A stretch of DNA of 64,000 nucleotides from Rhizodiscina lignyota (Eukaryota), in NCBI GenBank assembly GCA_010015805.1, contig ML978133.1, positions 744,001 through 808,000 on the forward strand, given 5' to 3'. The position numbers and the translations under genes are program-made. Below the pieces are notes generated by a model. It was not told the DNA's origin, made no database searches, and was given only the letters and a program-made list of their open reading frames with translations. Of this stretch, positions 8,844 through 13,443 are shown in pieces. Positions within the stretch are counted from its first letter, which is position 1; each line of letters starts with the position of its first letter.

Positions 8844-9824
8844 TTAGTGAGCTTGTATACTCTCAAGAATTCTGTCAGAGCGTGCGTCTGCCCATTCTCG
8901 GATCTTTCCAAAACTTCGACATGTGTGGGGGTAGTCTGAATCAACATATCGAAAAGGGCTTCCATCGATACCACGGTATGACTTTACTGGAATAGGTGTA
9001 AGATCCCCAGCACACATAATATACTGGCGGATCTGGTCAATACAGTGGCCTGCAAACTCTTGTCAACCCTTGCACAGATTCGATCTCTACTGGCGTACCT
9101 TTGTGCATCAGATTGGTGTGAGGGTTGTTGGCGACAGGTTCGTTGTAATATTCTGACCAGATCATATGGCGAAGTTGATCCTATGGCCTATCGTCAGCCA
9201 GTCGGGGCATCAGCAAGAGCTGGAGTCCCACGTACGAGACAGTGCAGCGTGTGGAACATGTCTATTCCTCCCAAGTACCCTTCATCTCCTGTAGGTAATT
9301 GTATAAGCGTTTGGGCCCACTCGTCCGGCCAGGTATTCCGAGCTTCCTCCTTTGTCATGATGAAATATCGATCTGAGAGCCAAGTGTGAGCAGTAGCCAT
9401 TCCATCTCCAAAGTTTACACAATAACTGACGCCGTATAAGACTTTTCCAGGCTTCATCTATCTCAGGACTTGGATAGCCACCATAGTCCACTGAACTAGG
9501 ATGCGGGAGATACACACTCCCGTTTTCTCGAAACGCTGGTCCCCCGGTAAACCTGACTTCTTCAATCTCAATTGCGGCAGTCGCTGGACCAAAATCGGAT
9601 TTCCATCCTGTTATAAAAGAGCCACGAGTTGCATCATCGGCAGCCATTAGAGGTGGAGGTTGATTCCACGACAGGTACATACAGTAAAGGGCAAAAATGA
9701 AAGTCGTCGCCCACGGAATGGCGGAGGTAACTGAAAGCGTCCAAGGGTATGCAATTCGACGAACCCGATCATCTGAGGTGGGCAAAAGCAGATACTGCTT
9801 TCGAGACAAATTCAGAGGCCACAT
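8844..9824 (-). CDS. DUF3328/UstYa-family oxidase #1 (4 exons, apparently intact)
   Basis: N-terminal TM helix (WATTFIFALYCMYLSW), PSPEIDEAWKSL, GGIDMFHTLHCL|DQLR, second motif MHK|GHCIDQIRQYIMCAGDLTP, HTCRSFGKIREW, stop TAA at 8846-8844. Three GT-AG introns restore the frame. Confidence 0.92.
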
Positions 9825-10488
9825 TGCTCGACAATAAAACGTCCAAGCGGTGCAAACGAGTTCAGCCTTCAAGAAGTTGTTGATGTCAGGTAGTGTGCAC
9901 TCTGCCCATAAACTTTGGACGGGACACCACGGCCATGTTACACAAAGCGAACCGCACCCGGTCATACAAAATAAGAAAGAGTGCCCGGACAGAGCTTTTG
10001 GGGCCATCGGTAGCATCTGCCGTGACACTTCAAGGACGATTAGGTATCTTTCGCGGTGATATGTCATCACGATATTAAATCTTGTTCTACTGTATGCAGA
10101 GTGAGGCGTAATGCTGCTGGAGCCTGCTGCTCTGGGCCCGATGTTTGAAGGCATAAGCAAAGGGTGCTTGAATGAGGGGTACAAACTCAAAGTCTACATG
10201 TATGCCCCACTCTGGGCACAGATCGGCCGTAAATGTTGCGGTCAAGGGGAACAGGCACCAGTGATAAGGCGAATATTCAGAGTAGTGAACAGTACACTCA
10301 TTTAGGAATCTGGGCGTTTTGTCACAGCAATGCTCGTCACTTGAGGCTATTTGATTTAATTTTTATCTTAATCCGGAGCCACATGATTGACCAAGATATT
10401 GATTTCCCGCTCGCGCCTTGCTGCCTAGTACTCTCCTCAAATGAGAATCCACCAAACGCCATCGACTGAGATGGTTCCGCATCACAGC

Positions 10489-10722
10489 TTAATCAGTCTC
10501 GCCTCTGGCCCAGTCGTAGTCTTCATCCTGAATCGCTTCGATAGACGCCTTTATAGTCTCCATTGATTCCGCGGACACTGCCTTCTTGCTGACTACATAT
10601 CTGTAAGCCTTTAATTCTAGTACTGGAAGTAATGAATGTCAAGACGAACGCTCAGCTGGTAGAGCTAGCACTGACGAAAACAGTACCGCAATACCAAATA
10701 CAGCAACCGCGTAAAATCTCAT
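10489..10722 (-). CDS. Small secreted peptide, 58 aa, 2 exons (10722-10650 and 10592-10489); putative RiPP precursor: MRFYAVAVFGIAVLFSSVLALPAELSKKAVSAESMETIKASIEAIQDEDYDWARGETD*
   Basis: ATG followed by a hydrophobic signal ending VLA-LP. A 57-nt intron GTTCGT...GCTTAC...TAG gives an in-frame 177-nt CDS. It has a dibasic KK and an acidic ED-Y motif, a TATATA about 100 nt upstream (10822-10828), and sits between DUF3328 genes. It is absent from the ORF track. Confidence 0.85.
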
Positions 10723-11279
10723 GATTGTCAGATACGCGGAGAGGATAAGATAAGTAGGGAGGATATGATGTGTCGAATTCGAAAGTTTACGTGAAGAATT
10801 CTGTTCAACAATGGCTCCCTCTATATATCTGTGTTATGCTCAACCTGGCCTCGTACTCTTTTTCCATGAAACTCGCTTTTCGCACCCTTGACCTTGTAAG
10901 TATTTGCAGTCTACAACTCCGAGAGAGGATGGTCCCAGCGACTATAGTCTATTAGGTAGTTCAGAGGTGAGAATTTTTAATCAATTCGACTAGCTCTTAT
11001 GCCGTACATTATCACACCAGCCAGTCCATGTATCCTTCTTTTTGCTGGAGACATCGGCCTACTTCGAGGCGGTGATTATGAATCTCCTTCGACTTGAGTA
11101 TCATTTCGTACTGGCAAGGCGGCATAATCTATTGCGGGTCGGTAACAACCTGGGCTTGCAGAGACATAGCTTGGAGATGCATACATAATTTTGGTTGGAA
11201 TCAACCTCTTCTTCCCATCCCTTCATTCTGATATCCGCAGCCTTTGTGGGTTCGAGTAAACCCATTATAAATTATTACA

Positions 11280-12314
11280 ATGTATTCTTTTCTTGAGAAG
11301 CAACGTATTGACGAGACTCCAACAACACCAGAAGAAGAGCTAGGCCTCATCACAGAGAATAGGAAGAATGTGACAGGGAGATCAATTCTCTACCAGAGTG
11401 TTGCTCAATTTGTCTTCTTCCTGTTAGGAGCCTTGGTCGCTGGAGGGTATTTTTGGACTACCAAGCTCACATGTTCAGACCCGTCAATAGAGTATTGGTG
11501 TTCGTATACCATTCTCAAGCAGTATTTCGAACGTACGTTGACAGACATCACTAATACGACGTAGCACCGGCAAATGAGGCTGTCAAATACAAGACCGTTA
11601 CATCAAAGAGACACTTCTTTAATCGAAGTCCTTGGATCGGGCCAGACCCGCGAGATCCAAATATCGATCCGAAATGGCCACAGAAACTTGATGAACAGTG
11701 GGCTGGTTTGTACGATTGTAAGTACTCCAATGATACAAGGCTTCCTCGTGCCTAAAAGCTACAAGATGGCACAAGCGCGATACCGTCCTCGGTAGCAGAA
11801 AGGCTTCCAAACGAAACCCTTCCGCACCCTAATGAGCCTGGCATGTACGTGATCCAGCTAGAAGTCTTTCACCACCTGCATTGCCTGAATATGATTCGGC
11901 AAATGGCATACCCGGATGAATATCCAGATATGTGGGAATACAAAGAAGACGGAAAAGTAAACCACGACGCTACAATATCATACCATATCGGTCCGTCTGG
12001 TCCCTTTAAAACCCCACATCCAACTTGATAGTCTAACTATGGAAGACCATTGCATCGAATCCTTGCGACAATACGCTATTTGCAATGTAGACACTTCGTA
12101 TGCGTCTTTCCACCACAATCCTGGCGACGACTTTAACATCTTCCCCAACCTCTGGGCGACTCACACCTGCAGAGATTTTGACGCCGTCAAAGAATGGGCT
12201 CTGGAGAGGCAGGCAACAAACTGGCAGACGGCAGACAAGAAGGTTCCGTTTATGGGCCTGCCTGGCATGGAGACACCAGCTTCTGCGCTTCACAACAAGT
12301 CAGAACGTAGATAG
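11280..12314 (+). CDS. DUF3328/UstYa-family oxidase #2 (4 exons, apparently intact)
   Basis: TM helix (FVFFLLGALVAGGYFW), YWSPANEAV, LDEQWAGLY, LEVFHHLHCLNMIRQ, second motif YHI|DHCIESLRQYAICNVDT, HTCRDFDAVKEWA. Confidence 0.93.
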
Positions 12315-12488
12315 TGTAATGTACTGGTGGAACATTGGTGACGTCCCTGTCAGGGAACAGTTTTGACACAGTAGCTGTGGGTGTTGACGATGTAGTGCGG
12401 TCAGTCAGTCTATCTCAAGCTCTGACCAAAGTCCACAGAATACTCTACAGCAATGCATCGGAGTCACGGTCTTTCCTTGTTGTCAATG

Positions 12489-13443
12489 TTACTTATCCAC
12501 AAGTACTTCGTCCTTATTCAGGATGCCGTGTCCACTAGCAGTTCTATGACGTTCCACCCACTCGAACATGGCGTCCCAGTCCCGACATTGATGTGTGACG
12601 CCCCAGCCATTGACGCTGCGGACAGGTTTTTGGTCCTTGAGGGCGGCCTTTTCCAATGCCATATCCCCCGAGCACATGATTGCCTGGCAAGCACATCAGT
12701 CTTTGCATGTCGAGTTGCGACGGTTTTCGAGTCACCTGTCTTAAATAATCAAAGCAGTGCGATGCATGACCATGCTTGATGAGATGATCCTCCTCGCTGC
12801 TACCGCTTTCCTTTAGCGACTGCAGTCTTGTATAGCCTGCCTTTAATGTGGCCTGTTGCATTTAGTAAAGTTCGCCACAAAGATGTGGCTCAGGTCTTAC
12901 GAGGCAGTGGATCTGATGGTACGCCGAGATAACGTACTCTTCGCTTGCTGAAGAAGAACCGTTCTCGAGCGGATATCCGCCATGAAGGCCCCATGCCTTT
13001 GGGTCCGTGATCTCAATCCCGCCTTCTCCTTCTAGAAAGATGTTAGACAACAGTCAAAACACGCATTGAATAACGTCCCTGGCATCAATGTGTTCCAGGC
13101 AGACCTCTTATCGTTGGGATCTGAATGTGCAAAGGCCGGATCGGGTTGAAAGGTCACCATCCGATCATGAACTGGCATCGTCAGTGCTGTTTCGTTCTTG
13201 TATTATCCGGGCTGGTCTCGTACATTTAGGAAACAGCTCGTAGTAGCTTAGCAAAGCCTCTCCATGCGACAGCTGTCTCCACCTGTAGACCAGAAACCCC
13301 CCAAGCACAATATTGATGCTGATTGAACAAAGGAAACAAATAGACCAAGAGTGACCCAATTTTGGAGTGGAGCTTGAGTATGTCCTTGCAGCGTCAAGAT
13401 TTTCAATCTTCTGGTAACGTGGTAGTGCCCTTTGGAACCACAT
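12489..13443 (-). CDS. DUF3328/UstYa-family oxidase #3 (5 exons; the second intron has a GG rather than GT donor, so it may be splice-defective)
   Basis: TM helix (ICFLCSISINIVLGGFLVY), AWNTLMP|EGEGGI, ISAYHQIHCL, HGHASHCFDYLRQ|AIMCSGDMALE, GWGVTHQCRDWDAMFEW. Confidence 0.88.

Follow-up and report, generated by a model that had tools for sequence, protein, structure and literature searches.

What do three UstYa (DUF3328) oxidases act on when their genes surround a small gene for a putative secreted peptide? This question is raised by a 64,000-nucleotide stretch of Rhizodiscina lignyota contig ML978133.1 (the window), in which an island of 4.6 kb, 8844-13443, consists of three intron-containing UstYa/DUF3328 genes, here called A, B, and C, around one small gene encoding a candidate precursor of 58 amino acids (aa), P0001. 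The answer that we favor, with belief and doubt about evenly matched, is that the island is a compact dikaritin-like (UstYa-dependent) locus for a peptide made on ribosomes and modified after translation (RiPP), whose precursor has a single unit instead of repeats separated by Kex2 sites. Judged from its sequence, the locus would be dikaritin-like in its working, a variant and not a regular member of the dikaritins, because the precursor fails the repeat/Kex2 feature that defines them.

This reading is supported because all three UstYa genes have the family profile PF11807, and each encodes two HxxHC motifs and a hydrophobic helix near the N-terminus. Furthermore, the small gene is real and conserved, and its relative in Phaeoacremonium minimum, P0003, has an architecture of repeats, Lys-Arg (KR) sites, and acidic ED pairs followed by Tyr. 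Finally, the small gene is flanked on either side by a UstYa gene, and DUF3328 genes peak beside the genes of Kex2-repeat precursors. The present analysis establishes that the oxidases belong to the UstYa family, that the small gene is real, conserved, and adjacent to the oxidase genes, and that P0003 has this architecture.

The small gene and its relative in Phaeoacremonium minimum

Gene models were built from coordinates after all stop-to-stop frames over 8000-14500 had been listed. The spliced translation of the small gene (positions of this and the other features are given in Table 1) is exactly P0001, which is deposited as KAF2094938.1, hypothetical protein NA57DRAFT_80105 of Rhizodiscina lignyota. 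The gene is therefore annotated already. A first-pass annotation of this DNA had described it as a hidden 58-aa precursor gene; it is indeed present, spliced, and divergent from gene B, but it is not hidden. Shorter introns of 27 and 33 nt for the small open reading frame (ORF) were rejected because they are below fungal norms and fail to give the deposited protein. The GC content at third codon positions (GC3) of the gene is 0.49, and GC3 does not separate the reading frames.

In P0001, as inspection of the sequence shows, MR is followed by a hydrophobic run and, near Ala20, by a site of small residues; this N-terminus aligns with that of P0003. Residues 33-58, the conserved part plus the tail, read ESMETIKASIEAIQDEDYDWARGETD. 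The tail terminates at the stop codon, with no KR behind it. The ED pair followed by Tyr (...DEDY) is present as it is at the cores of UstA, the ustiloxin precursor (PMC6514808; this and the other papers cited are drawn on in part). No remnant of a further unit was found by tblastn anywhere in the window. The AlphaFold 2 (AF2) model of P0001 contains low-confidence helices only, with a mean predicted local distance difference test (pLDDT) value of 58.3, and Pfam gave nothing above a cut-off for P0001 or P0003; two small-ORF pieces were likewise unmatched. With this low AF2 confidence and no Pfam family at cut-off, there is no sign that P0001 is a folded protein, which counts in favor of a precursor.

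An exhaustive HMMER search of 1,835,955,588 representative proteins returned two at E ≤ 0.001, namely, P0001 itself and P0002 (E = 4.4e-4, in two matched stretches), its sole detectable relative. P0003, a hypothetical P. minimum protein of 101 aa (UCRPA7_3986, EOO00523.1), contains P0002 as its residues 29-101. We take P. minimum to be a Sordariomycete and R. lignyota a Dothideomycete, and thus members of different classes. In BLASTP, residues 1-50 of P0001 align with residues 1-63 of P0003 (E = 2e-8), spanning the putative signal peptide and the exon junction, and residues 32-51 align again with the second unit of P0003 (E = 1e-6). A tblastn search of the window with P0003 finds 10516-10569, with 72% identity over 18 residues, and the second P0003 unit matches too.

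Residues 47-101 of P0003 read SLKTLAASVEAIQDEDYPHGEWYSKREEGHIADSLKTLAASVETIQEEDYEIWDE. Besides a signal peptide and a pair of KR sites, it contains, twice over, a conserved stretch of about 17 residues that ends in EDY, and after it comes a short tail with Trp that differs between the two units. The two stretches terminate in ...DEDY and ...EEDY; unit 1 is bounded by KR at its end, and unit 2 runs up to the C-terminus. The second tail begins with Y-E-I, a Tyr-x-Ile pattern, where P0001 has Y-D-W. As read from the sequence, this is the architecture of a Kex2-type repeat precursor, with the conserved recognition part and variable tails expected of RiPP precursors, and P0001 appears as a one-unit version of the same layout, without KR.

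Could annotation have produced a spurious small gene, and could its resemblance to P0003 be mere chance? The gene is very short, other splice combinations of the region are also open, and one relative only is known. However, the relative was found at E = 4.4e-4 among 1.84 billion proteins and in two matched stretches, the pairwise alignment extends from the putative signal peptide over the exon junction into the conserved stretch, and the intron is canonical at 57 nt, so that we consider an artefact very improbable. The sequence comparisons indicate that the small gene is real and conserved, and of precursor type.

P0003 does not occur in the published tables and supplements of Kex2-repeat proteins of PMC7329392 (0 occurrences), although P. 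minimum was surveyed there, and short two-repeat precursors may thus escape mining that is based on repeats. Its locus tags and accessions gave 0 papers in a literature search, and they were likewise absent from the 12 supplement files (of 13) of PMC4472170 that were searched. A metagenome search with a profile of P0001 and P0003 gave 374 pattern stretches, none of them confirmed. The degenerate pattern E[AT]IQ[DE]EDY occurs at 42 metagenome loci, which were judged to be chance because the upstream part of the motif is missing from all of them and tblastn gave at best E = 0.009 over 17 residues. For P0003, the highest feature score in the Atlas was 0.83, which is too low to count as a lead.

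The UstYa oxidases and the splice donor of gene C

The first-pass annotation had described three spliced genes, each with two HxxHC motifs and an N-terminal transmembrane helix; the gene models and motif positions agree with it, and hydropathy shows a hydrophobic helix near each N-terminus. The motifs are HTLHC at residue 172 and HKGHC at residue 203 in A, HHLHC at residue 160 and HIDHC at residue 198 in B, and HQIHC at residue 143 and HASHC at residue 177 in C, and two extra cysteines lie downstream of the second motif in all three. The helices, as judged by hydropathy, correspond to Kyte-Doolittle windows of 19 residues at 30-48 in A, 36-54 in B, and 34-52 in C, with maxima of 1.41, 1.93, and 2.19, respectively.

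Pfam was run on 12 single-exon translations, leaving out the 27-aa exon 3 of A. PF11807 (UstYa) matches seven of these 12 pieces at E ≤ 0.01 (A, 3/3; B, 2/4; C, 2/5), collinear in the order of the profile, and four of the 12 lie above the curated cut-off of 25 bits, with at least one in each gene: exon 4 of A (49.1 bits), exons 3 and 4 of B (52.3 and 51.4), and exon 5 of C (35.5). Exon 4 of C is under the cut-off at 17.7 bits, and the two N-terminal exons of B are without outside support. The profile matches thus bear out the proposed assignment of A, B, and C to the UstYa/DUF3328 family. The three proteins were also said to be quite unlike each other, and pairwise identities of 27.7% (A-B), 22.3% (A-C), and 29.5% (B-C) confirm it; the paralogues are therefore old.

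Some intron positions are nevertheless common to them. The second HxxHC motif is interrupted by an intron in both A and B, an intron follows the first motif directly in both A and C, and, by residue indices, a phase-1 intron interrupts the sixth codon past a conserved Trp in all three. MAFFT placed this phase-1 intron of A and B in one alignment column; C was misaligned there. All introns of A and B are GT-AG, and their reading frames are intact.

Gene C differs in that its intron 2 begins with GG, not GT, and this GG falls at the intron position and phase that are conserved in A, B, and C. A search by hand for an alternative splice that keeps the frame, pairing GT or GC in 13060-13105 with AG in 13012-13033, found none, and an unspliced read through the intron leads to a stop codon. 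Contigs of a public run (X1, depth 150), which is possibly the window's own source, have 0 differences over 8700-13600; an assembly slip is thereby ruled out, whereas the state could still be peculiar to the strain. As sequenced, gene C cannot be canonically spliced to full length. Its downstream exons are all open and keep both HxxHC motifs, and any inactivation must therefore be recent.

The donor of gene C bears on a second explanation of the locus, that it is the decaying remnant of a RiPP cluster, with a one-unit precursor, KK in place of KR, a lost donor, and an island open to deletion, and that it has no product now. The GG donor, with the same letters in the contigs at depth 150, favors this explanation, as do the single unit of P0001, compared with two in P0003, the KK pair of P0001 opposite a KR of P0003, the lack of more unit remnants in the window, and the direct repeats that flank the island. 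The deposited proteins add a further point. In word-index searches of longer proteins in a 5.8-billion-cluster collection, exon 1 of A gave 380 candidates and exon 5 of C gave one, with 0 matches and no self-hit for either. The deposited proteome is therefore apparently without A and C as modeled here, and the public R. lignyota annotation may lack or mis-model these two of the three UstYa genes; the annotators may have modeled them otherwise. However, frames are unbroken and splice sites canonical in A, B, and the small gene, any loss of C is recent, as noted, and a single-unit precursor could be fully functional. We therefore regard a remnant with no product as rather unlikely.

What is expected of such oxidases in the cell? 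In the study of CctR (PMC12435403), DUF3328 proteins are described as membrane-anchored homodimers with a lumen-facing catalytic domain, in which the HxxHC(x)nHxxHC motif provides a binuclear copper center. They require O2 and electrons and are likened by the authors to the plant BURP peptide cyclases; copper binding, dimerization, and oxygen-dependent catalysis are shown there for CctR only. By analogy, the active sites of A, B, and C would lie in the compartment that a precursor bearing a signal peptide traverses.

What the oxidases may act on

The small gene is located between genes A and B, so that its immediate neighbors on both sides are UstYa genes. It is separated by 664 bp from the start of gene A and is divergent from gene B, with 557 bp between the two ATGs as a shared divergent promoter region. 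Across 1461 fungal strains, DUF3328 genes peak directly beside the genes of Kex2-repeat precursors (PMC7329392). The absence from the island of a tyrosinase, methyltransferase, S41 peptidase, non-ribosomal peptide synthetase (NRPS), or transporter, which the first-pass annotation had pointed out, holds for ORFs of at least 110 aa, the limit that applies to all domain scans reported here. At this limit, the island has no other recognizable biosynthetic gene. Neither it nor the rest of the window has a tyrosinase, peptide-acting methyltransferase, S41 peptidase, transporter, or transcription factor or other cluster regulator, and the long ORFs of the 64-kb window include no NRPS, polyketide synthase (PKS), or other core enzyme.

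Several observations weigh against a dikaritin-like locus. P0001 has one unit and 0 KR, and thus lacks the repeat/Kex2 feature defining dikaritin precursors; its sole KR-like site is KK at residues 27-28, opposite the first KR of P0003. Only one related species was found for the small protein. There is no tyrosinase domain, although the ustiloxin and phomopsin rings need one (PMC7329392). No promoter motif was found in common to the three upstream regions, whose shared words are five 7-mers, compared with 3.6 expected, and no 8-mers or 9-mers. Gene C, to judge from its sequence, may be inactive, a recent pseudogene, and the proposal that three oxidases act on one peptide is weakened because its intron 2 begins with GG. 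Of 9399 DUF3328 genes, only 31.8% have a Kex2-repeat protein encoded within 15 genes, and about two-thirds are thus near no recognized precursor (PMC7329392); furthermore, some DUF3328 enzymes act on non-ribosomal peptides, as in the tailoring of cyclochlorotine (PMC12435403). For these last two reasons, a RiPP cannot be deduced from UstYa genes alone. Groups of UstYa genes that lack a repeat precursor are indeed common, as the figure of 31.8% shows, and have already been discussed in print.

Could the small peptide then be an unrelated neighbor, for example, a signaling or effector-like peptide handled by general proteases, while the UstYa trio acts on a small molecule, on a non-ribosomal peptide made elsewhere, or on an unlinked precursor? 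The cyclochlorotine precedent, the many DUF3328 genes far from repeat precursors, the lack of repeats and KR in P0001, and the lack of shared promoter words are all in accord with this. Yet there is no NRPS, PKS, or other core enzyme among the long ORFs to supply such a substrate, P0003 has a Kex2-repeat layout with ED-Tyr flanks like those of UstA, and the small gene lies inside the oxidase trio, not beside it. We consider a bystander peptide unlikely. Of the proposed peptide-modifying, RiPP-like cluster, the UstYa family and a precursor-type gene with a Kex2-repeat relative have held up, whereas the precursor itself is without repeats and KR.

The dikaritin-like reading can be set beside the known UstYa systems. 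The ustiloxin cluster of Aspergillus flavus (UstA, UstYa, UstYb, UstQ) likewise has a precursor, secreted there and putatively so here, by paralogous DUF3328 oxidases, and a Tyr-first core straight after an acidic ED pair; processing in the secretory pathway, reported there, would also apply here. However, UstA has 16 repeats of a YAIG core, each between conserved ED and KR motifs (PMC6514808), compared with one unit and no KR in P0001. The ustiloxin cluster also has about 17 genes, including those for a tyrosinase, a methyltransferase, a P450, and flavin monooxygenases (FMOs), and no such gene is present in the island here. In the ustiloxin and phomopsin cores, Tyr is at position 1 and Ile at position 3, with their side chains cyclized together (Umemura 2020, PMC7329392). 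Phomopsin (PhomA, five DUF3328 genes), with its Tyr-x-Ile ring, resembles the present locus in having several divergent UstYa paralogues around one precursor, but differs in its repeat precursor and tyrosinase, and in the methyltransferase and S41 peptidase that are conserved in the phomopsin group.

The asperipin-2a cluster (aprA, aprY, aprR, aprT) is likewise a minimal cluster of four genes, with, as would be the case here, a DUF3328 protein as the sole cyclizing enzyme and no tyrosinase; its DUF3328 protein is reported to cross-link Tyr side chains to β-carbons. It has one DUF3328 gene, a repeat precursor, a transporter, and a reductase, whereas the island has three DUF3328 genes and a single-unit precursor. 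Cyclochlorotine (CctO, CctP2, CctR) offers a parallel for three DUF3328 paralogues in a cluster, each of them there with a different reaction (PMC12435403), although its substrate is non-ribosomal and the window has no NRPS. The Parmeliaceae lichen clans R1 and R2 (PMC12048977) have UstY genes beside signal-peptide genes without conserved repeats, as would be the case here. R1 differs in its tyrosinase and methyltransferase genes, and the portions of that paper drawn on here report no conserved leader motif or related repeat precursor for R1 or R2. The uncharacterized P. minimum protein UCRPA7_3986 has the putative signal peptide, the conserved stretch up to EDY, and the short Trp-containing tails in common with P0001, but has two units and two KR sites compared with one unit and none. 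Acalitide (PMC10840396) was set aside as a comparison because that fungal RiPP is UstYa-independent and so has no bearing on the locus. In the literature searched, which was mostly titles and listings, we found neither this locus nor any UstYa precursor with a single unit described.

How would a dikaritin-like locus of this kind work? The 58-aa protein would enter the endoplasmic reticulum through its signal peptide, which is probably cleaved after Ala20. The acidic, presumably helical stretch of about 17 residues ending in ...IQDEDY would serve as the recognition sequence, and the lumen-facing, membrane-anchored, binuclear-copper oxidases A and B would oxidize the C-terminal tail from Tyr50 onward. 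The oxidase of gene C would take part only if its transcript is still spliced. The likeliest reaction may be a cross-link from Tyr50 to Trp52, two places on, comparable to the Tyr-x-Ile rings of ustiloxin and phomopsin, and hydroxylation or desaturation by the other paralogue may go along with it. Proteases would then release the tail, which the secretory pathway could export without a dedicated transporter.

We suggest, more tentatively and with doubt prevailing, that P0001 and P0003 represent a new subclass of UstYa-dependent precursors. These would have a conserved amphipathic leader of about 17 residues ending in IQ(D/E)EDY and one or two units in place of Kex2-bounded repeats, and copper oxidases alone, with no tyrosinase, would cross-link their Tyr/Trp-containing C-terminal tail. 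If this is true, many orphan UstYa gene groups may have single-unit precursors that are invisible to repeat-based mining; what the DUF3328 genes far from repeat precursors act on is a question raised in recent genome-mining papers. The leader ending in ED-Tyr, common to P0001 and its repeat-type relative, could serve as a signature in looking for single-unit precursors elsewhere, and the locus is a very small, self-contained test case, with only 4.6 kb for two or three oxidases and the 58-aa gene. Confirmation would make the rules for finding fungal RiPPs broader and would provide a simple substrate for studying the newly defined copper chemistry of UstYa proteins.

Surroundings of the island

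Table 1. Island genes, their parts, and adjacent features, in positions of the window.
Feature	Position	Strand	Details
UstYa gene A	8844-9824	-	4 exons, 272 aa
Gene A, exons	9431-9824, 9236-9372, 9099-9180, 8844-9049	-	GT-AG introns of 58, 55, and 49 nt
Small gene for putative secreted peptide (candidate precursor)	10489-10722	-	2 exons, 58 aa
Small gene, exons	10650-10722, 10489-10592	-	intron 10593-10649, 57 nt, GTTCGT...TAG, canonical GT..AG
Conserved leader/putative recognition stretch	10519-10569	-	P0001 residues 33-49, acidic ...DED end just before Tyr50; tblastn, BLASTP
Proposed core/tail	10492-10518	-	P0001 residues 50-58, Tyr50 start, Trp52; putative core role; counterpart of the variable tails behind EDY in both P0003 units
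UstYa gene B	11280-12314	+	4 exons, 288 aa
Gene B, exons	11280-11499, 11565-11717, 11766-11990, 12046-12314	+	GT-AG introns of 65, 48, and 55 nt
UstYa gene C	12489-13443	-	5 exons, 251 aa with intron 2 spliced out
Gene C, exons	13224-13443, 13079-13171, 12901-13031, 12736-12852, 12489-12683	-	PF11807 on exons 4 and 5
Gene C, intron 2	13032-13078	-	begins GGACGT; donor GG (13078, 13077), not GT
MGH1-like/GH65-C glycoside hydrolase gene, secreted	5318-8142	-	left neighbor of the island
SesA-N-terminal/ankyrin gene (STAND-like)	15254-17346	+	right of the island
FAD-binding monooxygenase gene	17497-18867	-	right of the island
Left copy of direct repeat, about 230 bp	8379-8612	.	exact-seed family D1 and pairwise alignment
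Right copy of direct repeat, about 230 bp	14174-14397	.	exact-seed family D1 and pairwise alignment

At the right end of the island, genes B and C are convergent, with 174 bp between their stop codons. The GC content of the island, 0.46-0.50, is not distinct from that of its flanks. The glycoside hydrolase gene on the left consists of three ORF pieces with an N-terminal hydrophobic stretch. On the right, the FAD-binding monooxygenase gene could conceivably be a member of the cluster, by analogy, since the ustiloxin cluster has flavin monooxygenases. The other genes of the window are housekeeping and hydrolase genes, encoding an Arp-like actin, a tRNA methyltransferase, Mre11, TAF10, a GH43 protein, a carboxylesterase, a P450, a homocysteine methyltransferase, and a tannase.

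A pair of direct repeats of about 230 bp encloses exactly the four-gene island, and the left copy lies in the upstream region of the glycoside hydrolase gene. The 64-kb window contains no further copy. The two are 79% identical over a 71-nt core, with a mean column identity of 72% across the wider alignment, and a 19-nt core occurs twice in the window, compared with 0.08 occurrences expected. An Rfam search of 8000-15000 gave 0 matches, and the repeat thus matches no Rfam family. The pair could mark the boundary of an insertion or duplication, or be part of a dispersed repeat family, and direct repeats in this position would allow the island to be lost through recombination.

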